DNA of 64,000 bases from Planctomycetota bacterium. GTDB taxonomy: Bacteria; Planctomycetota; JAMOSO01. Both the position numbers and the translations under genes were made by a program. The notes beneath the pieces are model-generated. The model was not told the DNA's origin, made no database searches, and saw nothing but the letters and a program-made list of their open reading frames with translations. This document shows, in pieces, positions 11,793-48,437 of this stretch; the stretch's first letter is position 1; the number at the start of each line of letters is the position of its first letter. Location of the stretch: NCBI GenBank assembly GCA_027063065.1, contig JAMOSO010000007.1, positions 1,290 to 65,289 of the forward strand. The letters are read 5' to 3'.

Positions 11793-12674
11793 ATGAAATT
11801 TGTTAATCCTCAAAATGATTTTGCATTTAAAAAGATATTTGGTAATGAACAAAAAACATCTATTTTGGTTTCTTTATTAAATTCAGTTTTAGATTTTAAA
11901 GGTCAAAATAAGATAAAAAGCGTATCGATAGCTAATCCATATCAAGTTCCAAAGATTGATGCGTTAAAAGAAACAGTCTTAGATGTTAAAGCAGTAAATC
12001 GGCGAGGAGAGAGTTTTATTGTAGAAATGCAAAGAAAAGACAATCATGATTTTGCTAAGCGAAGCTTATATTATACTTCTAAAGCTTATGTGTCTCAGTT
12101 AGAGCCAGGAGTACAGCACGGGTATGCTAATTTAAAAAAAGTTTATTTTATAGGTTTTTTAAATTTTAATATGTTTGCAGGAGACAACTATATAAGTAGA
12201 CATTTAATTTTAAATAAAGACACGCTCAAACAAGAAATTAATGATTTTGAGTTTACTTTTATAGAACTGACAAAATTTAAAAAAAAGTTATCAGATTTAA
12301 CTACGGTATTAGATAAATGGATATATTTTATCAATAATGTACAGAATTTAACTATGATACCTCAGGAATTTTCTAATTTAGATGAATTTAAATTAGCTTT
12401 TGATACCGCTAATCAGTGTTGTTGGGATGCTAAGGAATTAGAAATTTATGAATATATGGCATTTAAAGAATATGAAGACCGCATGTACGTGCAACGTGAA
12501 ATAGCTAAAGGTGTTCAAAAAGGCATTGAGCAAGGCATTGAGCAAGGCATTGAGCAAGGCATTGAGCAAGCGAAAATTGAGACTGCTAAAAATCTTAAAG
12601 CTTTAAATATAGATGTTAATGTAATTGCTAAATCAACAGGGTTATCTATAAGACAAATTGATAATATTCATTAA
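11793..12674 (+). CDS. Rpn/YhgA-like PD-(D/E)XK recombination-promoting nuclease / putative transposase
   Basis: 293 aa. The 'FAFKKIFG' N-terminus, a 'LDVKAV...ESFIVEMQ' D...E-x-Q nuclease-core pattern and 'FIELTKF' are characteristic of the YhgA-like family. The C-terminal tail contains (GIEQ)x4. Confidence 0.65.
   Translation: MKFVNPQNDFAFKKIFGNEQKTSILVSLLNSVLDFKGQNKIKSVSIANPYQVPKIDALKETVLDVKAVNRRGESFIVEMQRKDNHDFAKRSLYYTSKAYVSQLEPGVQHGYANLKKVYFIGFLNFNMFAGDNYISRHLILNKDTLKQEINDFEFTFIELTKFKKKLSDLTTVLDKWIYFINNVQNLTMIPQEFSNLDEFKLAFDTANQCCWDAKELEIYEYMAFKEYEDRMYVQREIAKGVQKGIEQGIEQGIEQGIEQAKIETAKNLKALNIDVNVIAKSTGLSIRQIDNIH
12523..12570 (+). repeat. perfect 12-nt tandem repeat x4 (ggcattgagcaa) inside the Rpn-like CDS
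   Basis: Seen directly. It encodes GIEQGIEQGIEQGIEQ in frame. Confidence 0.9.
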
Positions 12675-19155: not shown

Positions 19156-21564
19156 TTAGCTACATTTACTAAATCCACAACTATGACATTTTGCACAACC
19201 TTCGGCCATTACAAGTTCTCCAGCACATTCTGGGCATTTTAGCTTAAAAGCTGTATTTGCTGTGGTTTCTTTGGCGCCCATATCATCACCCATAGTTCTA
19301 AGGCCTTTAGATACTTGGCTTAAATCACTTTCGCCAAGCAGTAAGGCTTTTAAGCCACTATCTTTTTTGGCATGTTGATATTTTTGAATAGCTTTCGCTA
19401 ACCCGTCTGCCAATGATGTAATACGGCCATCTTTGGTTGATATGGATAGGCTAGAGCCGATTCCTTCTAGTTGTTTTACAACATCGTTAAGACTGCCTTC
19501 AACACGTAAATATAAGCTCATAAGGCGACACATAGCCTCTAGATCAGAACATGCCACATCACCACCTTTGCCTAATTGCGCAAATACTTCACGTTCTTTT
19601 CCAGATATTGGATCTACAACAATTTTTACATGCATATTACCAAACGGAGTCATTTGTTTAATGCGAATAGCTGTAAGGATGTCTGGTAAACGCATAGGCT
19701 TAACAAAACCATCTTTGGTTAATTTTAAGGTAGATGTAGCTGGGATTACTTCTTTTTTAGTTTCTTTTTTCTTTTCAGTTAATGCCATAGGTTGATTGTC
19801 ACGACATCCATCGCGGTATACAGTAACGCCTTTGCATTTTTGTTCCCAAGCTTGCACATATATATCGCTAACTTCTTGTATGGTAGCTTCATGAGGGAAA
19901 TTAGTAGTTTTAGATATGGCACTATCACAGTGTTTTTGAAAAGCAGCTTGCATTTTTACATGCCATTCAGGAGTTATGTCGCGTGCGGTTACAAAAACTT
20001 TTTTGATATCTTCTGGGATACCATCAATTTGAGATATAGAACCTAATTCACAGATGCGATCTAATAATTTTTGAGAATGGATGCCAAGTTTTTTAGAAAC
20101 TGTTTCAAATTGTTCGTTTACTTCTGTCAGACGTTGACCATCTAATACATTACGATGAAAAGCCAATGAAAATAATGGCTCGATGCCACAAGAACAGTTG
20201 GCAATAATTGAGATCGTACCTGTAGGTGCTAATGTGGTTGTGCAGGCATTGCGCATTTTGCGTTTGTTTTTTTCCCATATAGAGCCTTTCCAATTAGGAA
20301 AACACCCACGATCATCGGCTAATTTTTCTGAAACAGCATGAGATTCATCGTTTAAAAACTTCATTACTTTTTCAGCAAATTTTACCCCTTCTGATGAATT
20401 ATAAGGGATGCCCATGGCGTATAAAGTGTCGCCAAAACCCATTAACCCTAAACCTATTTTGCGATTATTTTTAGCTATATCTTCAATTTCTTTTATTGGG
20501 TAATTATTGGCATCAATTACATTATCTAAAAATCTAGTTGACAGATGTATGGTGTTTTTTAGCGAGTCCCAATTAAAATTTGCTATGCCATTCTCGTCTT
20601 TTTCAACAAATTTACAGATGTTGATAGATCCTAAATTGCAAGATTCGTAAGGCAATAATGGTTGTTCTCCGCATGGATTAGTCGCTTCGATTTTGCCGAT
20701 ATGTGGCGTGGGGTTTTTGCGGTTTACTTCGTCAATAAAAATAATACCTGGTTCACCTGTATTCCAAGCTTTTTGTACGATTTCATCATATATTTCTTTG
20801 ACAGACCAGTTGCCTCCGTTGTCTTTGGGTATATTAGATGCTTCGCCAGTGCGTGGATTATAGCATACATGGTCGCTATTTGGATTGTCTTTTAAATTTT
20901 GCATAAATTCATCAGTAACCGATACAGATAAATTAAAATTAGTTAAATTGGTTAAATTTTCTTTGACATTAATAAAATCGACAATATCTGGATGGTCAAT
21001 ACGCATCATGCCCATATTGGCGCCACGACGAAAAGCTCCCTGTTGAATAGCGTTGGTGGCCTCAGAAAATACCTTCATAAAAGAAAGAGGTCCTGAAGTA
21101 GTGCCTCCTGATGAGCGTACAATATCATTTTTAGGACGTAAATTGGCAAAGCTAAAACCTGTTCCGCCGCCGGCTTTTTGGATAAGAGCAGTGTTTTTAA
21201 TGCTGGTAAAAATACCGTCAATACTGTCCTCAACGGGTAAAACAAAACAGGCGCTTAACATACCCATACTTCTACCGGCATTCATTAGAGTAGGCGAGTT
21301 AGGCATAAAACGTCCAGATACCATCAAATCATAAAATTCTTGTTTGACTGTTTCTATGGCGCCTTCGGATAGACCGTAATTTTTTTCAACATCAGCTATG
21401 ACGGTGGCAACTCTGTTAAATAGTTCCGCTGGGGTTTCAATAGGTTTGCCATTGTCGTCTTTTGCAAGATAACGAGCTTTTAAAACAGCCTCTGCATTTT
21501 TGGTAATGGCATATGTTGATTTGTCCCCTGCAACTCTATTTGTACTAGTTTTCACAGCCTCCAT
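19156..21564 (-). CDS. nrdJ: class II adenosylcobalamin-dependent ribonucleotide reductase
   Basis: 802 aa. 'VLKARYLAKDDNG' N-terminus, active-site 'NPCGEQPL', and a C-terminal CxxC...CxxC Zn ribbon (CPECAGE...CAKCHSCG). Confidence 0.8.
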   Translation of the reverse strand: MEAVKTSTNRVAGDKSTYAITKNAEAVLKARYLAKDDNGKPIETPAELFNRVATVIADVEKNYGLSEGAIETVKQEFYDLMVSGRFMPNSPTLMNAGRSMGMLSACFVLPVEDSIDGIFTSIKNTALIQKAGGGTGFSFANLRPKNDIVRSSGGTTSGPLSFMKVFSEATNAIQQGAFRRGANMGMMRIDHPDIVDFINVKENLTNLTNFNLSVSVTDEFMQNLKDNPNSDHVCYNPRTGEASNIPKDNGGNWSVKEIYDEIVQKAWNTGEPGIIFIDEVNRKNPTPHIGKIEATNPCGEQPLLPYESCNLGSINICKFVEKDENGIANFNWDSLKNTIHLSTRFLDNVIDANNYPIKEIEDIAKNNRKIGLGLMGFGDTLYAMGIPYNSSEGVKFAEKVMKFLNDESHAVSEKLADDRGCFPNWKGSIWEKNKRKMRNACTTTLAPTGTISIIANCSCGIEPLFSLAFHRNVLDGQRLTEVNEQFETVSKKLGIHSQKLLDRICELGSISQIDGIPEDIKKVFVTARDITPEWHVKMQAAFQKHCDSAISKTTNFPHEATIQEVSDIYVQAWEQKCKGVTVYRDGCRDNQPMALTEKKKETKKEVIPATSTLKLTKDGFVKPMRLPDILTAIRIKQMTPFGNMHVKIVVDPISGKEREVFAQLGKGGDVACSDLEAMCRLMSLYLRVEGSLNDVVKQLEGIGSSLSISTKDGRITSLADGLAKAIQKYQHAKKDSGLKALLLGESDLSQVSKGLRTMGDDMGAKETTANTAFKLKCPECAGELVMAEGCAKCHSCGFSKCS

Positions 21565-22429: not shown

Positions 22430-23512
22430 ATGTCTATAAACAATGAAGCAAGAGATTTAGCACAAAGTATATCACAATTGGGTTCACATAGTGCTTTAGA
22501 AGAAATGCGTCATTTAAAAGGTGAGGCATTAGTTAAACGTTATTTAGAATTTTTAGCTAATTGCACCCTTGAAACAGTACATAGTTATCAAGTGCATTTA
22601 ATGCAGTTTTTTGAAGTAATTGGTACAGATGATATAGGCAAAGTTGATGGTGAAGCAGTTGCGGATTATATTTTTCATCTCAAGCAAGAAAATTACGCTC
22701 AAGATTCGATTAAATTAAAAATCGGACGCGTGATGGGTTTTTTGCGTTTTTGTAATGATTTAAATATGCTAAATTTCCCATTGGGCTTGTTATCTCATTT
22801 AATTAAAGCACCTAGAGTTCATACAAAAGAGTTAAGCAGTAAAGATATCTTTGATTTGGGTGATATAGAAAAGTTGGCAATGTATTTTAATACACGCATT
22901 TCTCAAGCTACTGTAGAAAACAATTTAAAAGCCATGCGTTTGGCATGGAGAGATAGGTTGATTTTTACGATAGGTCTTAATACTGGCATTCGAGTTAGTG
23001 AGATATCTAATATCCAAATTAAGGATATGATTCAATATAATGGAAAATGGTATATTAAGATTATTGGTAAGGGCTCTAAACATTTTGATGTTCCTTTATT
23101 AGGTAGAGATTTAACAGAGGTTATTAAACCATATTTACAAATTACAAAACGCACGATGGGTGATAGAGATAGTTATTTATTAATGAGTGATAGATCTAAA
23201 GGTTTAAAACCTCTTAATCGTACAGCTATTTTTAAAGTAATTAAAAAGGTATGTTTAGAAGCAGAGATATATAAAAATTTATCACCCCATTCTTTGCGTC
23301 ATACCTTTGCTACAAATTTAGCCTTGCAGGGTGCCGATATTCATACGGTTAAAGAAGCTTTACATCATGAAAGTATCACTACTTCAGAGCGATATATTCA
23401 TATGGCTCAGCAGTTAAAGGATAAAATCCGTAATTATATACCAGGTGTGGTATTAAATGCGCAAAAGGGTGGGGAAGTTTATATTAATTATCATGCAGGT
23501 TATAATTTATAA
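22430..23512 (+). CDS. site-specific tyrosine recombinase (XerC/XerD family-like)
   Basis: C-terminal catalytic region carries R (LNTGIRVSE), 'HSLRHTFAT' and 'SERYIHM' (the Tyr). The N-terminal SAM-like core-binding domain is present. Confidence 0.6.
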   Translation: MSINNEARDLAQSISQLGSHSALEEMRHLKGEALVKRYLEFLANCTLETVHSYQVHLMQFFEVIGTDDIGKVDGEAVADYIFHLKQENYAQDSIKLKIGRVMGFLRFCNDLNMLNFPLGLLSHLIKAPRVHTKELSSKDIFDLGDIEKLAMYFNTRISQATVENNLKAMRLAWRDRLIFTIGLNTGIRVSEISNIQIKDMIQYNGKWYIKIIGKGSKHFDVPLLGRDLTEVIKPYLQITKRTMGDRDSYLLMSDRSKGLKPLNRTAIFKVIKKVCLEAEIYKNLSPHSLRHTFATNLALQGADIHTVKEALHHESITTSERYIHMAQQLKDKIRNYIPGVVLNAQKGGEVYINYHAGYNL

Positions 23513-24792: not shown

Positions 24793-26229
24793 TTAGTTAT
24801 GTATATGTGTTACTGTAAAATGAGTAATATTTTTGCCAATTATTTTAACCTGTTCACCACGATTGATAAAGCAACCTTCAGTAACTACATCAATGGTTTT
24901 ATCATTGATAATTATTTTGCCACTGGGTCTTAAATCGGTGGAGGCTATACCAATTTGATTTATTAAGTCGTCTTGACTGTTGGAGCAGGTGATGCTTTTG
25001 TCTAATGTAGTTTTTAAAGCTATAGCGTTAAAAACTGGTACATCTGGCAAATAATAGGCCAATATTAAAAATATAACTATTGAGGTTGCAAATGAGCCAG
25101 ATAAAATTTGCATTTGGGTAAATACAAAATCAGTTTGCAATGGCGTATCAGGGATAATTATTCCACCGGTGAAGGATAAAACTAAACCCATTAAAAATAA
25201 TCCAAAGCCAATCAAACCAAATAGCATAGTGCCAGGAATAATAAATAATTCTATTACGATAAGTACAATGCCTGTAAAAACCATAATAATATAAGGTATA
25301 TCAGCTAAGCCAGATAAATAGCGTGCACCTAATAAAATACTAAAACAGGCGATAGATGTTAAACCAGGCATTCCAAAGCCAGGCATTTTAAATTCTGTCC
25401 ACATGGCGACAAGCGCAATAATTAATATGATTGAACTAACTCCACTAGAGGTTAAATACATGGTTAAATTTTCTGACCAATTTGGTTTAATAGAGGGAAG
25501 TTCTTGAAGGTTATAATATTGTTTAAGTTCACTTATATCTTTTATATTAGCTTTAGAAAATCCCATTTCCAAGGCTTCACTGTTGTCTATGGTTAATAAT
25601 TTGCCTTTAGCTATGATGGTCTTTTTTTGAGTATAACGATTTTTTTTGATTTTTGATAAATCTTGATATTGCTGTTTGCTTAGGTAAGTGGTTTTGCCAT
25701 TTAATTTAAATTTATAAACTTCTATGCTCTGATCGACAAAAGCTTCAGCTAATGGTTGCGAATAACCATTGCGTCTGGCAAATGATCTAAATTGAGAGCG
25801 TAAAACGGTTTCTATTTTTTCGCCAGCTGGGGTTGGTGCGCCATTGTTGCCTCCTACGATTGGTTGGCAATCACCTATTTGTGCTCCGTGTGTCATTATT
25901 ATTTCATTGCAACTCATACTAATTAAAGCCCCCGCAGAGATGGCTCTAGTATTGACCCATGCAATGGTTTTAATCTTTGGATTTGTATTAATTGTATCGC
26001 AAATTTTTAATGCACTATCTACTCTGCCACCAAAAGTATTTAGTTTGTATATAATAATATTTACACCGTTTTTGATTGCTTTTTGGGTGGCATTTTCAAT
26101 GTGCATAGCAAGACTGGGGCTTATTTCTCCGTCTATATTGATAAGCACAGCTTTAGTTTTGGTTGATTCTTGAGCTTGTATATGCAAGCAAGAGATAAAT
26201 AATGTAACAAAAATAGTTATATATTTCAT
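24793..26229 (-). CDS. NfeD-like membrane-bound ClpP-class serine protease
   Basis: 478 aa. Signal peptide, a ClpP/SDH-like domain, about four TM helices, and a C-terminal NfeD OB-fold. Confidence 0.7.
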   Translation of the reverse strand: MKYITIFVTLFISCLHIQAQESTKTKAVLINIDGEISPSLAMHIENATQKAIKNGVNIIIYKLNTFGGRVDSALKICDTINTNPKIKTIAWVNTRAISAGALISMSCNEIIMTHGAQIGDCQPIVGGNNGAPTPAGEKIETVLRSQFRSFARRNGYSQPLAEAFVDQSIEVYKFKLNGKTTYLSKQQYQDLSKIKKNRYTQKKTIIAKGKLLTIDNSEALEMGFSKANIKDISELKQYYNLQELPSIKPNWSENLTMYLTSSGVSSIILIIALVAMWTEFKMPGFGMPGLTSIACFSILLGARYLSGLADIPYIIMVFTGIVLIVIELFIIPGTMLFGLIGFGLFLMGLVLSFTGGIIIPDTPLQTDFVFTQMQILSGSFATSIVIFLILAYYLPDVPVFNAIALKTTLDKSITCSNSQDDLINQIGIASTDLRPSGKIIINDKTIDVVTEGCFINRGEQVKIIGKNITHFTVTHIHN

Positions 26230-26936
26230 TGATTGTTTGATTGTGCGTATGCATCAACCACCTTTTTATTAATCATTGAGGCTTGATATCCAGCCCCAAA
26301 TCCATTGTCAATATTTACCACCGATATACCGGCAGCACAAGAATTTAACATGCTTAAAAGGGGTGCTAATCCGTTAAAAGATGCTCCATACCCAACTGAG
26401 GTTGGCACAGCAATAACAGGAGTATCTATTAAACCTCCGATTACAGAAGGTAATGCTCCGTCCATACCAGCAACGACAACCACGGCATTTGCTTGCTTAA
26501 TTTGATTTATTTTTGCCAAAATTCTATGCAGTCCTGCCACACCACAATCACTTATGCGGATTACTTTGCTACCTGTTACCTCTGCGGTAACGGCGGCTTC
26601 TTCAAAGACAGGCCTGTCGCTTGCACCAGCTGATATTATGGCTATTAATCCAGATTGCTGAATGGGTTGATTATGTATTATTATTGTGCGTGCTATTGGG
26701 TTGTGTTGTGCGTTTGGATATATAGCTAATATTTTATCTGCTGTTTTGGATGATACTCTTGTGCCAAAAAATATTTTATTTTGGTCAGTAAAGTGTTTGA
26801 CTATAGTCAAAATATCTTCGGTAGTTTTTTCGGCACAGTATATAGTTTCAGGCGCAAGGCATCTTTTTTGGCGGTGTGCATCAATGCAAATATGCTCTAA
26901 ATCTTGATAATAATCATTTAAATGGTTTTGGTTCAT
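26226..26936 (-). CDS. larB: LarB-like PurE-fold protein (nickel-pincer cofactor biosynthesis / AIR carboxylase-related)
   Basis: 236 aa. The C-terminal PurE-like block reads 'VVVAGMDGALPSVIGGLIDTPVIAVPTSVGYG'. The N-terminal LarB-specific extension is present. It overlaps nfeD by 4 nt (ATGA). Confidence 0.65.
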   Translation of the reverse strand: MNQNHLNDYYQDLEHICIDAHRQKRCLAPETIYCAEKTTEDILTIVKHFTDQNKIFFGTRVSSKTADKILAIYPNAQHNPIARTIIIHNQPIQQSGLIAIISAGASDRPVFEEAAVTAEVTGSKVIRISDCGVAGLHRILAKINQIKQANAVVVVAGMDGALPSVIGGLIDTPVIAVPTSVGYGASFNGLAPLLSMLNSCAAGISVVNIDNGFGAGYQASMINKKVVDAYAQSNNQ

Positions 26937-42070: not shown

Positions 42071-42373
42071 TTAGGAGTCTTTTTTGATTTGTAATTTTTT
42101 TATTTCGATGATTAATATACCGACAGCAGCAATTAATAAACCCATTTGGCATTGATTGAAATAATTTTCAGTGATACCTTGTTGCATGACATTTTGGGGT
42201 GAAATTAATATATATTGTATTAGTGAATATAAAAACCAATACGAACCGATACCAACAAAACCTACTCCAGAGGTCAAACCTAAAAAGCCCATTATTTTAA
42301 ATAAGGTTTTGTTAAACCAATTTTGAGCATCTTTTGCCTCAAGATCATAATTACATTCTTGTTTATCTTCCAT
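42071..42373 (-). CDS. small two-TM membrane protein
   Basis: 100 aa with two hydrophobic helices. Confidence 0.4.
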   Translation of the reverse strand: MEDKQECNYDLEAKDAQNWFNKTLFKIMGFLGLTSGVGFVGIGSYWFLYSLIQYILISPQNVMQQGITENYFNQCQMGLLIAAVGILIIEIKKLQIKKDS

Positions 42374-42526
42374 TTATATCTCCTTATTAAATTAATTATA
42401 GTTTAAAGATATAAAATGTAAAATCTAATAAAACTAGATAAATAATTATAATGTTAGATGTTGATTTATATCAATGTATCTTAATCAGCAGTGGCAACCG
42501 CGGAGGTAAGGCCATATAATAAGTTT

Positions 42527-43285
42527 ATGCTTATTTTAATTTCACCTACAAAAACATTAAATTTTGTGCAAAATATAAGCGGCTTGGCAGAAACCAAGCC
42601 GCTTTTTTTTGATAAAAGCGCAAGTCTAGTCAATGTAATAGCAGGTATGTCATTGGCTCAGATTAAAACTATTTTTAAATTAAGTGACATGTTGTCTCAA
42701 AAAACATTTAATGAATATCAAGATTGGTCGGTAACAGATATACAAAATCCAGCGATTTATTCTTATGCTGGTACTGTTTTTGATAAGATGAATCCATCTC
42801 AATTTTCTTTAGAAGATATGCAGTTTGCACAATTACATTTATGTATTATTGATGGTTTATATGGTTTGTTACGTCCTATGGATATGATTAAAAGATATCG
42901 CTTAGAAATGAATACAAAAATACCGTTACACGGCTTTAAAAATTTATATGCATTTTGGTGCGATTTAATAACCTCTTATTTGCAAACACAATTATGCCAG
43001 TCAGACTATATTATAAACTTAGCTTCCAAAGAATATTTTAAGGCTATTAAATTTGAAGATTTAAACGTTTTAGTAATTACGCCTACCTTTGCAGAATGGT
43101 CAAATGGTGTATTAAAAACAAAAGCGACTTATGCCAAACAAGCTAGGGGGTTAATGGTGGCTTTTTGTATTAAAAATCAAATAGAAAACCCCAATGATTT
43201 AAAGCTTTTTAATCAAGAAGGATATGAGTTTTCTGAAACGCATTCCAACAAAAATAATTTTGTTTTTATCAGAAAATCACAATAA
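42527..43285 (+). CDS. yaaA: peroxide stress protein YaaA (UPF0246/DUF328)
   Basis: It begins 'MLILISPTKTLNF' like E. coli YaaA. The start is placed at the internal Met of the track ORF. Confidence 0.8.
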   Translation: MLILISPTKTLNFVQNISGLAETKPLFFDKSASLVNVIAGMSLAQIKTIFKLSDMLSQKTFNEYQDWSVTDIQNPAIYSYAGTVFDKMNPSQFSLEDMQFAQLHLCIIDGLYGLLRPMDMIKRYRLEMNTKIPLHGFKNLYAFWCDLITSYLQTQLCQSDYIINLASKEYFKAIKFEDLNVLVITPTFAEWSNGVLKTKATYAKQARGLMVAFCIKNQIENPNDLKLFNQEGYEFSETHSNKNNFVFIRKSQ

Positions 43286-43502
43286 TTAACATTATTTTGA
43301 CAAGGATTTTAACATCGGTTTTGTTATAGTGTGTATATAATTAAATTGGAGAGCATAGTATTATGAAGTATAAGCCATTTTTAAAATGGACTCTTTAAAT
43401 TGTAGGAGGATATTAAGTAATTCTGATGTTAAGGCTGATTATGGAACAGATACAATAGATACGTTTATAGATTAGCAATTTAGTTAAAGGTAATAAATTA
43501 AT

Positions 43503-44549
43503 ATGAGTATAGAACAAAAATTAGAAGTGATTTGTGGTAATATTCCAGAGTTGGATATGGGCTGGGCAAAGTGTGCTAAGACTAGATTTAATGAGTCATT
43601 TTTGCAAGGTGGTGGTTTGGGTACTTTAGTAGAACCAGCATCAATTGTTGCGGCAATTAACGAAGATTTATTATCTGGAATTAAAAGTAAAATGTTATAT
43701 ATGGTTGCTGCTGATCACGGTTTATTGCGCAATTTTGATGTGTCAACTTTTGGCTCAGATTTTTTAAATGAAGCTAGTCAAGCAATTTTAAATAATAAAT
43801 CTGCGGGAACAATTACTGCAAAAGCATCGGGGGTTAAAGTACGTTTGATAGATGCTGGTATTAAGGGTAAAATAGAAAAACACCGCCATTATATCGAGAT
43901 AGGTAAACGCATATCCGCAGATATAACCATTGAAAATGCTTTTAGTCGTAATGAAACCCTTGAGGCAATTGGCGCAGGTGTTGGGTTGGTTGAGGTTGGA
44001 GTCAGAGCTACAATGGATTGCATTGCTGTTGCTTCATTGGGAGTGGGTGCCGAGCTTAGTGCATTATCTTTATTGGGTGCAATTACAGATTTAAAAGCGG
44101 AACAACTTTTAGATAATACAGATGAAAAATATACGCAAAAACGCACAGTAATAAATAAGTCAATAAATCGTACTAATAAAAATCAAAATGCCATAGATTT
44201 ATTAGCTACAATTGGTGGTGCTGATATAGCGGCCTTGGTGGGTATTTGTTTGTCTGGTGCTTTTTATAGGCGACCAATTGTTTTAGACGGCATAGCATCT
44301 TTGGTTGCAGGTATTATTGCTTGCGAATTAGCACCCGAAGTGCGCGGATATTTATTGGCTGCTCAAGAAGGATATGACAATGCAACTGATAGAGCATTGG
44401 AATGTTTACAAGTGCCTGCCATAATTGATATGGGCATAGGTGAAGGTGATGGCACTGCAGCATCTATTGCCTTAAATGTTTTGGATACCAGTATGCAGTT
44501 ATTAAATAAATTACCAACTTGTAAAAATGTAGGTATCAACAAAATTTAA
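43503..44549 (+). CDS. cobT: nicotinate-nucleotide--dimethylbenzimidazole phosphoribosyltransferase
   Basis: It aligns by eye with Salmonella CobT at 'LYMVAADHGLL' (LVMCADHGV), 'VRLIDAGI', 'PIVLDGIASLVAGIIACELAPEVRGYLL' and 'GIGEGDGTAASIAL'. Confidence 0.75.
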   Translation: MSIEQKLEVICGNIPELDMGWAKCAKTRFNESFLQGGGLGTLVEPASIVAAINEDLLSGIKSKMLYMVAADHGLLRNFDVSTFGSDFLNEASQAILNNKSAGTITAKASGVKVRLIDAGIKGKIEKHRHYIEIGKRISADITIENAFSRNETLEAIGAGVGLVEVGVRATMDCIAVASLGVGAELSALSLLGAITDLKAEQLLDNTDEKYTQKRTVINKSINRTNKNQNAIDLLATIGGADIAALVGICLSGAFYRRPIVLDGIASLVAGIIACELAPEVRGYLLAAQEGYDNATDRALECLQVPAIIDMGIGEGDGTAASIALNVLDTSMQLLNKLPTCKNVGINKI

Positions 44550-44550
44550 A

Positions 44551-46323
44551 ATGTTACCTAAAAAAGATTTTGTTTTTCTGGATAACGCATTAAAAAGTGA
44601 ATCTGGTTTTGGTTTTGGAAAGCATCAATTGCTTTTTACTAACCCACATAAGCAGTTGGTGTTAAAATCATTTAAACAGGTCAATTCATTTTTTGATGAT
44701 ATAGAAAGGTTATCTAAAAATTTTTGGTTAGCTGGATATTTTACTTATGAGCTAGGTCATTATTTTAATACAGGTATAGCCAAAGCAATAAATACTCCAC
44801 TGGCTTGGCTTGGTGTATTTGATGAACCAAAAGAACCAAATCAAAATTTTTTATCGATGACGCAATCATTTGATATGTCCCAAGGGGCTTTATCACAAAC
44901 CAAGCAAGAATATTTTAAAGCTATTGATTTAATTAAATTAGCCATTGAATCAGGTGTTACTTATCAGGTTAATTATTGTTTAGCATATTTGTTTAAACTC
45001 TGCGGAGATCCGTGGGGGCTTTATAAATTTATGCGTTCTCAACAACCAGTGTCCCATGGGGCTGTATTACAATGTGCAAATATGTGGGCTATTTCAGCTA
45101 GCCCAGAATTGTTTTTTAATTGTAAGTCAAATAAATTACGATCCAAGCCTATGAAGGGTACAGCTTGTCGAGGGCGTAATAATTATGAAGATAACCAACA
45201 ATCTAAATGGTTGCAAAATGATATAAAATCACGGGCAGAAAATGCAATGATTGTAGATTTATTACGCAACGATATTGGGGCGTTATCTGAGTTGGGCTCA
45301 GTTAAAGTGAAAAATTTATTTGATATAGAAAAATACCCAAGCTTATTGCAAATGGTATCTAGCGTTGAAGGTAAATTAAAAAACAATACATCTTGGCAAA
45401 CAATGTTTACAAAGTTATTTCCCTGCGGTTCTATTACTGGTGCGCCAAAAATATCTACGATGCATTTAATTGATCAATTAGAGACTCGGCCTAGAGGTGT
45501 TTATACAGGTGCAATAGGTTATATACATAAAAATTTAGCAGAATTTTCTGTGCCGATCAGAACGGTTCAGTTACAAGAAAATCCCTTGGGTGATTTTAAT
45601 GCAAGCTTAGGCTTAGGTAGTGGAATTATTATGGATTCTGATGCACAATCAGAGTTTGATGAATGTTTACTAAAAGCAAAATTTTTGCAATATAGATACC
45701 CAGATTTCCAATTGTTAGAAACTATGTTATGTAAAAATGGTACTATAGAGTTATTGGATTATCATTTAAATCGAGTGCGAGAGTCGGCTATTTATTTTGG
45801 ATGGGATTTAAATCATCAGTTAATTAAGCAACAAATATTGTCTTTAATCGTAAGCTTAAAGGGATATTATCGTATCAGAATGTTAATTTTTAAAGATGGT
45901 CGATGTAAAATTGAAAAATTTTCTTTTAAAACAGATAAATCTAATCAATTACTTAATGTAACAATTAGTAATCAGCGTATAGATTTGAAAGATTGTTTTC
46001 ATTTGCATAAAACTACTAATAGAAGTTTTTACGATAAGCAATTTTCTATGGCACAAAAACGGGGCTTTGCAGATATTGTATTTTGTAATAAAGATGGTTT
46101 GCTTACACAAGGTGCTATTAGCAATATTTGGATTAAGCGTAAAGGTGTACTATTGACCCCGCCTGTTTATGTGGGTGCGTTGCCAGGTGTTTATCGCCAA
46201 TATTTATTGGATAGGGGGGCAAAAGAATCAAAATTATATTTAGATGATTTAAAAAATGCAGATGAAATATATTTATCTAATGCCCTGCGTGGTTTGCGCA
46301 GGGTTACATTAAATATTAATTAA
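44551..46323 (+). CDS. pabB: aminodeoxychorismate synthase component I fused to aminodeoxychorismate lyase (PabB-PabC)
   Basis: Chorismate-utilising core 'PCGSITGAPK' and a 'KPMKGTA' motif carrying Lys, which is PabB-type rather than TrpE-type Ala. The C-terminal roughly 200 aa are class-IV aminotransferase/ADC-lyase-like. Confidence 0.75.
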   Translation: MLPKKDFVFLDNALKSESGFGFGKHQLLFTNPHKQLVLKSFKQVNSFFDDIERLSKNFWLAGYFTYELGHYFNTGIAKAINTPLAWLGVFDEPKEPNQNFLSMTQSFDMSQGALSQTKQEYFKAIDLIKLAIESGVTYQVNYCLAYLFKLCGDPWGLYKFMRSQQPVSHGAVLQCANMWAISASPELFFNCKSNKLRSKPMKGTACRGRNNYEDNQQSKWLQNDIKSRAENAMIVDLLRNDIGALSELGSVKVKNLFDIEKYPSLLQMVSSVEGKLKNNTSWQTMFTKLFPCGSITGAPKISTMHLIDQLETRPRGVYTGAIGYIHKNLAEFSVPIRTVQLQENPLGDFNASLGLGSGIIMDSDAQSEFDECLLKAKFLQYRYPDFQLLETMLCKNGTIELLDYHLNRVRESAIYFGWDLNHQLIKQQILSLIVSLKGYYRIRMLIFKDGRCKIEKFSFKTDKSNQLLNVTISNQRIDLKDCFHLHKTTNRSFYDKQFSMAQKRGFADIVFCNKDGLLTQGAISNIWIKRKGVLLTPPVYVGALPGVYRQYLLDRGAKESKLYLDDLKNADEIYLSNALRGLRRVTLNIN

Positions 46324-47326
46324 TTTTTTTTGCTTCAATTAGCCAGTGAGGCAATGGGGCTGGCAATTTTGTGGTGCAAGCATTTTTAAAATTGGCATTA
46401 CTTAACCATTGTTTTATTTCTGTATCGCTAAAAACCCACCCATTGTCAGTAGTGAGAGCCATATTGATAGCAAACAAAGCCGAAAACGTAGGTTGTGTAT
46501 GGGTTTTATCTGTCATCATATCTAAAATATAAATTTTACCACCCGGTTTTAAAGCTGTATAAGCTTTTGATAATAACTTTTTTATGTCCTCGGGACTTTC
46601 TTGGTGTAGCATACCAAAAAAATTAATGGCATCCATATTTTGTGGAAATTCTATTTCATGATAACTACCTGCTAAAGTGCTAACTTGTTGATCCATATTA
46701 TGATCGGTAATGATTTCTTGCGCCACTTTTACGACTTCTGGTAAATCTAGTACGATTGATTTTAATCGTGGGTAGGCTTTGGCAATTAAAATGGAGTATG
46801 TGCCGGGGCCACCACCAATATCAAGTAGTCGTGAACAATTGTTATAATCTAAGTGTGGTATTAGACCTTTGCCAATTGCCATAGCTCTACCGTGCATTGA
46901 ATAAACAAAAGTTCTAGTTCTGTTTAAATCACTGCCTAGGTGTATTTCTGGTTTTTCTACTGGCTTACCAGATTTAATTAATTGTGGCAATTTACCCCAT
47001 GCATTATATACATCACGGTTATAGCGAATGGCTTTAGATAAATCTGCGGGTGAATTTTCACTTAAAAATATGGAGCTTATTTCTGTATTATTATAGGTAT
47101 CATTATTTTTTTGTAATAATTGTAGGGCGACACAACCATCTAACAATAATCTTGCACCACGTGTATCTATTTTTAAATCTTTGCTGATGTGTTGAATATC
47201 TTGATTTGGATTGTTTTGTAGATATGTAAAAACACCTAAATCACTGGCAGTGAATAAAATACAAGAGTCATAAAAAGCAGAAGCCATATCAGTAATATAT
47301 TTTGGATTTATTTTATTAGATTGCAT
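46316..47326 (-). CDS. class I SAM-dependent O-methyltransferase (COMT-like, with dimerisation domain)
   Basis: 'LLDIGGGPGTYSILIA' motif I, plus an N-terminal winged-helix dimerisation region. Confidence 0.75.
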   Translation of the reverse strand: MQSNKINPKYITDMASAFYDSCILFTASDLGVFTYLQNNPNQDIQHISKDLKIDTRGARLLLDGCVALQLLQKNNDTYNNTEISSIFLSENSPADLSKAIRYNRDVYNAWGKLPQLIKSGKPVEKPEIHLGSDLNRTRTFVYSMHGRAMAIGKGLIPHLDYNNCSRLLDIGGGPGTYSILIAKAYPRLKSIVLDLPEVVKVAQEIITDHNMDQQVSTLAGSYHEIEFPQNMDAINFFGMLHQESPEDIKKLLSKAYTALKPGGKIYILDMMTDKTHTQPTFSALFAINMALTTDNGWVFSDTEIKQWLSNANFKNACTTKLPAPLPHWLIEAKKIN

Positions 47327-48437
47327 TTATTTTCTCCATGGCGAAATAGTATTCGTTAATAATTGATTTGGTTAAACCAATATTTTGTAAATTTGTTGGC
47401 AGTACATTAAAAGTGTAGGTTTCGATTTCAAAATGTTTTACACCAATTTTTAAAGCCGTTTTAAAAAAATCTAAATCAATTTGATTATTGGTAGTTTTTA
47501 TATTGTCATAACCATTAAAATAAATCGGCAAATGAAAATGTATTCTCATCTCTTGCCATAAATCAGTATTTTGTTGCATAATGTCTGGTGATAAATCGCT
47601 AAAACTTAAAATATTTTTATTTGTTTTTATTTTAACTTGATGTAAATATTTATCATCGTAAAACTCGTGCAATAAATTTTGTTGAAAATTTTTATCAATA
47701 CGCAAAGCGGAAGATATTTGTATTTTATTAATAGGTATATTGGCGGCGTGTAGATTAAGTAAGCTTTGGGTTAAGTTCTCATATTGAATAGCTAAATGGC
47801 AGGTATCAAAACATAGTCCAATATATTGTTGAGTTATATTATTTAATTGTTGATAAAAATCAATAAATTCTTGGCTAGTTTCTATACAACAGTCAGGTTC
47901 TGGTTCAATGGCAATATCAATATGTTTGCCAGTTTTTAATTCTATGTGTTGTAAAAATAGAGCAATATCATTTAATTTTTTTTTGGATTGTTTAATTTTA
48001 TCCCAAGAATTATTATTGGTTTTATATGAGATGGGTATACTACTAATCGATCCATTAATATTGTCTGGTAATAGCTCAGCCATAATATTGCAAACTCGTT
48101 TAGAGTATTGCAATCTTTCTGATGAGGTCCAGTCGGGATAGTATACCTTTGTTTTTAAATTTGGAGTAAAAAAATCACCATAGGGAAAAGCATTTATTGT
48201 AAAACAATATAAATTATGTTTGATTAAAAACTCTTTAAATCTGTTTAAATTATTTGGTTTTTCTAGCTCTATAGAGGCTTTATTAGATAGGTATAAACCT
48301 AATCCAAATGGTTGATCAGGGCATATTTGATTTTTTATTTTTAGTGAATATTCTTTAATAGCTAAGGAAATTTCATCAATATTATTTGCATTATGTACGT
48401 TAAGGCAATAGGTTAAATGGCAATTTTGAATTTGCAT
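47316..48437 (-). CDS. EboE-like TIM-barrel (xylose-isomerase-like) protein, putative
   Basis: 373 aa. Its position after the DHQS-like and UbiA genes matches the eboC-eboD-eboE order. The fold assignment is inferred, not motif-proven. Confidence 0.45.
   Translation of the reverse strand: MQIQNCHLTYCLNVHNANNIDEISLAIKEYSLKIKNQICPDQPFGLGLYLSNKASIELEKPNNLNRFKEFLIKHNLYCFTINAFPYGDFFTPNLKTKVYYPDWTSSERLQYSKRVCNIMAELLPDNINGSISSIPISYKTNNNSWDKIKQSKKKLNDIALFLQHIELKTGKHIDIAIEPEPDCCIETSQEFIDFYQQLNNITQQYIGLCFDTCHLAIQYENLTQSLLNLHAANIPINKIQISSALRIDKNFQQNLLHEFYDDKYLHQVKIKTNKNILSFSDLSPDIMQQNTDLWQEMRIHFHLPIYFNGYDNIKTTNNQIDLDFFKTALKIGVKHFEIETYTFNVLPTNLQNIGLTKSIINEYYFAMEKINAI

Follow-up and report, generated by a model that had tools for sequence, protein, structure and literature searches.

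A diverged CobT-fold gene paired with a pabB-pabC fusion beside a variant ebo-like locus in a Planctomycetota bacterium

The cobT-like/pabBC pair and its recurrence

We analysed a 64,000-nt stretch of DNA from a Planctomycetota bacterium (contig JAMOSO010000007.1; hereafter the window), in which a cobT-like gene and a pabB-pabC fusion (pabBC) form a pair that converges on an ebo-like gene cassette. An earlier note, made from the sequence alone, had drawn attention to this pair, and the layout it described was confirmed. The cobT-like gene occupies 43503-44549 (+) and encodes 348 amino acids. Its TAA stop codon ends at 44549 and a single base (a) separates it from the ATG of pabBC at 44551 (44551-46323, +; 590 amino acids). 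The TAA of pabBC (46321-46323) overlaps by 8 nt the convergent O-methyltransferase (OMT) gene at 46316-47326 (-), the last gene of the cassette. Upstream of the pair lies an intergenic leader of 217 nt (43286-43502, +), which was included in the Rfam and promoter scans described below.

The Pfam family DBI_PRT (PF02277) covers the whole CobT-like protein (201.7 bits, E = 2e-59), and the CobT motifs that the earlier note had listed are present: ADHG at residues 70-73, LDG at 261-263 and G313-E-G-D-G317. By both HMMER and MAFFT alignment, the catalytic Glu of canonical CobT aligns to D316 and not to E314 in the last of these. The NCBIfam CobT equivalogs gave 176.1 bits against a cut-off of 306 (NF000996) and 166 against 319.3 (TIGR03160), so that neither cut-off was reached. 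The AF2 model of the protein had a pLDDT of 80 and a pTM of 0.87, and Foldseek aligned it to ArsA and to the CobT structures of Thermus, Yersinia and Salmonella with TM scores of 0.78-0.87. As modelled, the CobT fold is intact despite the sequence divergence.

The protein proved to be rare. Among 1.84 billion cluster representatives searched with HMMER, we found a single related cluster at 71% identity, the next match scoring 130 bits at 26% identity. A word-indexed search of 5.8 billion clusters returned three members in all, namely the window protein and homologs at two further loci (L002 and L003). All three are on metagenomic contigs, and we refer to them as the clade. The degenerate motif IIDMGIGEGDGTA, which is specific to the clade, had no back-translated match in the representative genomes of 185,579 species and none in JGI metagenome contigs, and a metagenome scan using the clade alignment gave no confirmed further locus. 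In a neighbour-joining (NJ) tree of 115 DBI_PRT sequences, the three proteins form an orphan clade whose stem is the longest internal branch (0.263, compared with a median of 0.012). In the same set, the window protein shares a mean identity of 25% with the other family members, compared with 35% among those members themselves.

The second gene of the pair encodes a PabB-like part (aminodeoxychorismate synthase; 44551-45690, +; PF00425, TIGR00553) followed by a PabC-like part (fold-type IV pyridoxal phosphate (PLP) enzyme, aminodeoxychorismate lyase-like; 45703-46323, +; PF01063). In Pfam terms, Chorismate_bind (PF00425) matches residues 118-375 with 252 bits and Aminotran_4 (PF01063) residues 388-586 with 128.6 bits. 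The TIGR00553 pabB model scored 324 bits against a cut-off of 328.4, and NF005698 350.5 against 452. The PabB part is 35% identical to E. coli PabB and its closest solved relatives are aminodeoxychorismate synthases. The PabB-type lysine that had been pointed out in the motif was verified as K202 in P-M-K-G-T, equivalent to K274 of E. coli PabB; E186 corresponds to E258. Conservation was scored against 118 other PabB-PabC fusions, positions being taken as conserved at >=90%. The window protein keeps 113 of 120 such positions, and both the PabB Lys and the PLP Lys (K487 in HKTTNR) are found in 118/118 of the other fusions. The fusion most likely still makes 4-aminobenzoate (pABA) or a close analogue.

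Two departures from this conservation are common to the window and L002. In PabC of E. coli and P. aeruginosa, which carry K140 and E173, Glu173 accepts a hydrogen bond from PLP N1 (PMC3174152). The window has Gln520 at the position of this Glu, 33 residues after K487 (~46108-46110); L002 also has Gln, and 116 of the 118 others have Glu. C143 (~44977-44979) is likewise common to the window and L002, where all 118 others have Thr. Taken together, the T143C and E520Q changes suggest altered PLP chemistry or substrate handling, and the PLP electronics of the clade PabBC may be tuned differently.

PabB-PabC fusions as such are very common, with thousands of matches at ~40% identity, and the window protein resembles them in two-domain layout, length, PabB Lys and Glu, and PLP Lys. 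The architecture has reportedly been studied in Lactococcus lactis pabBC. What distinguishes the clade fusion is its coupling to a CobT-fold gene; the nearest other fusions (42-43% identity) have no such partner and sit among unrelated housekeeping genes.

Across the clade, pabBC lies directly 3' of the cobT-like gene in 3/3 loci: the window and L002 have 1 and 3 nt, respectively, between the two genes, and in L003 they overlap by 32 nt. Sequence downstream of the pair exists for the window and L002 only, leaving two loci informative for ebo adjacency, and in both of them the eboE-bearing side is tail-to-tail with pabBC. At the L002 junction eboE abuts pabBC directly, whereas in the window the OMT gene lies between them. 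Upstream of the pair, each locus has a different neighbour: YaaA in the window, a divergently transcribed TrpB in L002 and a radical-SAM/SPASM protein in L003. The co-occurrence of these genes, for which the earlier note had proposed a genome-wide test, was seen for pabBC in three loci of three and for convergent eboE in two of two, within a set that numbers three known members. As a separate observation, the TrpB-like gene of L002 (tryptophan synthase beta; 2-382, -) is another chorismate-pathway gene beside the module.

As a control for this linkage, the ebo operons of the nearest EboE relatives in the Planctomycetes-Verrucomicrobia-Chlamydiae (PVC) group (metagenome-assembled genomes of Kiritimatiellae and Lentisphaerales) were inspected and contained no cobT, pabB, short-chain dehydrogenase/reductase (SDR) or OMT gene. 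In a further control, 33 multidomain DBI_PRT proteins were found fused to cobamide-related partners such as CobU, CobC-like/His_Phos_1, CobQ and BluB-like/nitroreductase domains. A Rosetta-stone fusion of DBI_PRT to PabB or PabC was considered and rejected (0/33 multidomain relatives).

A remodelled active site in the CobT-like clade

Active-site positions were compared in an alignment of the clade with E. coli CobT and 111 of the best family hits (112 non-clade sequences). Residue roles in CobT were taken from PMC9561151, the ligands being mapped by alignment to published structures rather than from a ligand-bound model. Of the 36 positions conserved at >=85%, the clade retains 21, whereas the median for the other members is 97% and the lowest value 61%. 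The motifs that define the fold (ADHG, IDAG, GG and LDG) are kept.

Most of the changes fall on residues of known function. E174 of SeCobT is a ligand of the ribose 2'-OH, and in MjCobT the 5'-phosphate is bound by G154 and T156, the latter six residues after E150, the equivalent of SeCobT E174 (PMC9561151). In the clade, Ser178 stands at the E174 position and the G-x-G-N-T-T loop at the 5'-phosphate has become G-V/P-G-A-E-L/V (A183-E184-L185 in the window). The E150-T156 spacing of MjCobT would place a Glu (E184) where the phosphate-binding Thr is expected. S38 and G177 of MjCobT are further phosphate ligands (PMC9561151). The Ser of the GSLG motif is Gly in the clade (G38 in the window) and the GxGxG loop is deleted; judged by spacing, these would be the positions expected for S38 and G177. 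The general base, E317 of SeCobT in the L-G-E-G motif (PMC9561151), is replaced by Asp316, and a new Glu314 appears two residues earlier. H290 and E294 of E. coli CobT are replaced by Gln (Q288) and Asp, respectively.

Such replacements are uncommon in the rest of the family. The 112 non-clade members have Glu or Asp at the E174 position in 103 cases, the Asn of N-T-T in 98 and Thr or Ser at the phosphate Thr in 105. Asp at the E317 position occurs in 6/112 relatives, and in the clade D316 is accompanied by the extra E314. An Asp is possible in a CobT, as D52 of MjCobT acts as general base (PMC9561151).

All of these active-site replacements are invariant in the three clade members. The CobT-like proteins are 67-71% identical across loci with GC contents of 33, 45 and 58% (58% in L002), above the values for PabBC (59%) and EboE (46%) between the same loci. 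With invariant replacements and identity this high, the pattern is that of an active site which has changed and is held under constraint, not of a decaying one. With the contacts to the ribose 2'-OH and the 5'-phosphate replaced, the CobT-like protein probably no longer transfers phosphoribose from nicotinate mononucleotide (NaMN). The earlier note had suggested phosphoribosylation, using NaMN or phosphoribosyl pyrophosphate (PRPP), to give an N-ribotide like that formed by RFAP synthase. The exchange of Thr for Glu and of Glu for Ser, together with the deletion of the Gly-rich loop, speaks against this part of the proposal and makes an RFAP-like N-ribotide from NaMN doubtful.

The protein shares fold and Pfam family with CobT (EC 2.4.2.21) and with Sporomusa ovata ArsAB, ArsA being the best solved match (98 bits). 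In contrast to CobT, the clade scores at about half of the NCBIfam cut-offs, has its ligand residues replaced, and lacks a cobamide neighbourhood or riboswitch. ArsAB consists of two paralogous subunits encoded in tandem, whereas the window has a single DBI_PRT gene: a tblastn search with E. coli CobT matched 43680-44513 only. An ArsB-like silent subunit was also considered; unlike the clade, ArsB keeps E174 and E317 and pairs in tandem with ArsA. With TrpD (anthranilate and PRPP) and RFAP synthase (pABA and PRPP) the parallel is purely conceptual, in that a chorismate-utilising enzyme is combined with a ribosyl-type transferase; the CobT-like protein has no sequence or fold relationship to either and lacks the phosphate-binding residues that would be expected.

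A full-text literature search on CobT homologues returned cobamide-related or phage-annotation contexts only. We found no report of a cobT-like/pabBC/ebo arrangement. Degenerate DBI_PRT lineages were also seen elsewhere in the family (P0250, P0266, P0272, P0269, P0161, P0146 and P0179): the N-T-T or GxGxG loop is missing from them, or the catalytic Glu is replaced by Asp. Non-canonical CobT-fold proteins may thus be a broader phenomenon.

The ebo-like cassette and the wider window

The cassette is transcribed from the minus strand in the order eboB-SDR-eboC-eboD-eboE-OMT. EboB is a TatD-like metal hydrolase (51225-52055, -; PF01026), and the SDR gene follows at 50488-51213 (-; PF00106, 197 bits), with no counterpart in the two PVC ebo operons used for comparison (L010 and L011). 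Next is a diverged EboC-like UbiA prenyltransferase (49602-50525, -), which scores 132 bits against the NF035940 cut-off of 250 and for which the gene caller picks a shorter, 294-residue form. The EboD-type sugar-phosphate cyclase, which resembles dehydroquinate synthase (48454-49602, -), and EboE, a xylose-isomerase-like TIM barrel (47316-48437, -), both exceed their cut-offs (NF004852, 510 bits versus 333; NF035939, 386 bits versus 250). The terminal OMT (46316-47326, -) combines PF00891 with a dimerisation domain.

EboB is 56-60% identical to EboB of L010 and L011, EboD 48-49% to EboD of PVC ebo operons, and EboE 40-44% to EboE of Kiritimatiellae and Lentisphaerales and 46% to the partial EboE of L002. 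EboC reaches only 30-35% identity to PVC EboC, a hint that its acceptor or its prenyl donor has changed. Scanning the GTDB-representative genomes, a collection that does not include the window's own genome, with the window EboE gave no relatives. A tblastn search with PVC EboF found nothing in the 64-kb window, though eboF could lie elsewhere in the genome. EboA was not found in the window, as is also the case in the PVC relatives.

The PVC ebo operons (eboB-eboC-eboF-eboD-eboE) thus share with the window the B-C-D-E order and clear orthologues of EboB, EboD and EboE. The window differs from them in having no eboF, an inserted SDR gene, an appended PF00891 OMT gene and a much more diverged EboC, and in carrying the convergent cobT-like/pabBC pair at its 3' end. 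The ebo cluster has been linked to saccharoquinoline and thallusin; there the EboD cyclitol and L-aspartate give rise to the aromatic core, EboC farnesylates hydroxyquinaldic acids, and eboF is reported to be essential for thallusin synthesis (bioRxiv 10.64898/2026.05.21.724671). The absence of eboF, the divergence of EboC and the adjoining supply of an amino-aromatic unit are, taken together, consistent with a changed building block. Cyanobacterial scytonemin clusters, which lie near ebo, contain trpE and trpD. More generally, ebo clusters have been reported beside aromatic-metabolite loci (PMC12904256). A cobT-like/pabBC arrangement, or pabB, chorismate or CobT as partners, is absent from the ebo papers PMC5133447 and bioRxiv 10.64898/2026.05.21.724671.

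Upstream of eboB, three further genes have the same orientation (52055-55675, -), encoding a membrane-anchored alpha/alpha-toroid protein of 543 residues with squalene-cyclase/prenyltransferase-type repeats, a YdjY-domain protein of 235 residues and a secreted alpha/alpha-toroid protein of 414 residues. The last of these (52055-53299, -) is prenyltransferase/squalene-cyclase-repeat-like, with weak matches to PF13243 and PF09492, and its stop codon shares one base with the eboB start. By this arrangement, the toroid and YdjY genes may belong to the ebo operon, and the 414-residue gene may be co-transcribed with eboB. We know of no terpene cyclase for the ebo/thallusin pathway, and the toroid genes, if they are members of the operon, would be of interest for that reason.

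Cobamide and folate genes were sought in the window with Pfam and NCBIfam scans of open reading frames of >=120 amino acids. The B12-dependent ribonucleotide reductase NrdJ that the earlier note had mentioned was confirmed (19156-21564, -; NF006417, 1039 bits versus a cut-off of 961), and its statement that the window contains no other cob or fol gene also held. Searches of the 64-kb window with E. coli CobS and CobU (tblastn) found nothing; L002 and L003 likewise showed no cobamide neighbourhood genes (cobS, cobU, cobC). The window scans showed no glutamine amidotransferase either.

No Rfam family reached its gathering score anywhere in the window, and an E-value search of 42300-43700, which includes the leader of the pair, revealed no cobalamin or tetrahydrofolate riboswitch. 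A scan for promoter and terminator consensus sites gave no information in DNA this rich in AT, the 63 promoter-like sites being close to the 64 expected. Weak, sub-threshold Rfam matches at 42451-42670 trace to one hairpin, a perfect GC-rich stem of 11-12 bp (AAGCGGCTTGG...CCAAGCCGCTT; 42577-42604) with T-runs on its flanks, located inside the 5' part of the yaaA reading frame. A terminator-like or REP-like element is one possibility; another is that yaaA starts further downstream.

Two features outside the locus may be mentioned. LarB, an enzyme of nickel-pincer cofactor biosynthesis that uses nicotinate nucleotide, is encoded at 26226-26936 (-; NF033503, 281 bits versus a cut-off of 175), flanked by an NfeD-like protein and a protein of 507 residues without family assignment; larC and larE were not noticed nearby. 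Remnants of mobile elements are present in the left half of the window and do not adjoin the locus: a PD-(D/E)XK-family transposase-like gene at 11793-12674 (+) and a phage-type integrase gene at 22430-23512 (+).

Possible roles of the pair

The interpretation that we tentatively favour, at somewhat less than an even chance, is that the cobT-like and pabBC genes are an accessory module of the variant ebo pathway, providing it with an amino-aromatic unit and modifying that unit, rather than serving cobamide or folate housekeeping. The two genes would be translationally coupled and accessory to an ebo-type secondary-metabolite locus. PabBC, in which the catalytic Lys, the Glu and the PLP Lys are present, would convert chorismate into pABA or a close 4-amino aromatic. 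For the CobT-fold protein, the most likely ligands would be an aromatic acid or amine and, as second partner, a cyclitol or sugar-like compound without phosphate; on the amino-aromatic unit it would make or process a C-N or C-O linkage. Because the adjacency is conserved, we infer that the product would enter the convergent cassette of EboB, SDR, diverged EboC, EboD cyclitol synthase, EboE and OMT, without EboF. This retains from the earlier note the idea of a non-cobamide, non-folate role tied to ebo, for which the divergence of the CobT-like protein, the loss of NaMN-site residues, its conservation across loci of differing GC content, the linkage to pabBC (3/3) and eboE (2/2), the absence of such partners from the control loci, the lack of a B12 or tetrahydrofolate riboswitch and of cobS, cobU and fol genes in the 64 kb, and the variant make-up of the cassette all argue; the ribosyl phosphate transfer that the note had coupled to it is not retained.

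Several points weigh against an ebo-associated module. The clade has only three members, two of them informative on ebo adjacency, and all of them on metagenomic contigs. Being convergent, the pair and the cassette are not one operon. The PabB-PabC fusion is a common housekeeping architecture that is well kept here (113/120 positions) and could be the cell's source of pABA for folate, and the presence of B12-dependent NrdJ leads one to expect some cobamide metabolism. Finally, the substrate of the CobT-like protein is a prediction, and the mapping of its phosphate ligands comes from alignment to published structures.

A more specific version of the accessory module can be formulated, which we regard as a long shot. 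Here the CobT fold would have been repurposed as a new kind of transferase, one that has given up the 5'-phosphoribosyl donor, to join the arylamine of PabBC-made pABA to a non-phosphorylated sugar-like electrophile, either the EboD cyclitol or a derivative of it, or an unphosphorylated riboside. The resulting N-aryl (pseudo)glycoside would be prenylated by EboC, reduced and O-methylated, giving a pABA-cyclitol meroterpenoid branch of the ebo/thallusin pathway in which pABA replaces L-aspartate and EboF is dispensed with.

One alternative is that the arrangement is incidental housekeeping, with PabBC as the pABA source for folate, the CobT-like protein as a fast-evolving but functional lower-ligand activator, and the adjacency to ebo due to chance or inherited synteny. 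The need for cobamide shown by NrdJ and the firm tie of the wider DBI_PRT family to cobamide synthesis would fit such an activator, and Asp can serve as the general base, as in MjCobT D52 (PMC9561151). However, the protein has lost ribose and phosphate ligands and scores well under the family cut-offs, and neither cobS, cobU and cobC nor a B12 riboswitch is found near the pair. PabBC fusions are widespread, the nearest others occur in unrelated housekeeping contexts and the window protein keeps 113 of 120 conserved positions, which also speaks for this alternative. In contrast, the absence of the clade motif from the representative genomes of 185,579 species is a rarity unexpected for the housekeeping enzyme of a lineage, and the coupling to pabBC (3/3) and the adjacency to ebo recur despite differing upstream flanks and GC content. 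We therefore consider this explanation unlikely.

We see about as little probability in a self-contained two-gene pathway to a pABA-derived small molecule or cofactor (4-aminobenzoate that is glycosylated or otherwise conjugated, for instance) that is unrelated to ebo and has become its neighbour through a shared mobile or variable segment. The tight operon in 3/3 loci fits such a pathway, and the pair is convergent with ebo and not co-transcribed with it. The lower divergence of the pair (71% and 59% identity, compared with 46% for eboE) fits an independent history, as does the OMT gene that separates the pair from eboE in the window and not in L002. However, the pair has stayed next to eboE through a rearrangement of the junction and a change of upstream flanks, and the cassette itself is atypical (no eboF, a diverged EboC, added SDR and OMT genes) in a way that fits a changed substrate supply.

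A third alternative, in which the CobT-like protein has no catalytic role and serves PabBC as a partner, seems to us very improbable. It would be a pseudoenzyme or ligand sensor that replaces the missing PabA or the N-terminal regulatory region, or that binds an aromatic carboxylate in the former nicotinate site. In its favour, several catalytic and substrate ligands are lost, ArsB provides the precedent of a degenerate DBI_PRT subunit without the N-T-T motif, the window scans gave no glutamine amidotransferase, and the PabB part has a shorter N-terminal region than E. coli PabB, its residue 117 being the first to align, with residue 189 of the latter. Against it, the replaced positions are invariant and include the new acidic residues E184, E314 and D316, and the identity of 67-71% exceeds that of the enzymatic neighbours, a pattern better explained by a new active site than by decay; PabBC fusions of the same length also work elsewhere without such a partner.

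Predictions of B12 synthesis from genomes treat the DBI_PRT/CobT family as reliable evidence of lower-ligand attachment to cobamides. If the accessory-module reading is true, the clade would clearly exemplify neofunctionalisation and argue for caution in CobT-based B12 predictions. A natural ebo variant that lacks eboF and has another supply of aromatic amine would also be a useful comparator for establishing which enzyme builds the aromatic core. The ebo genes have only just been tied to a product, and the variant described here may lead to a new meroterpenoid.

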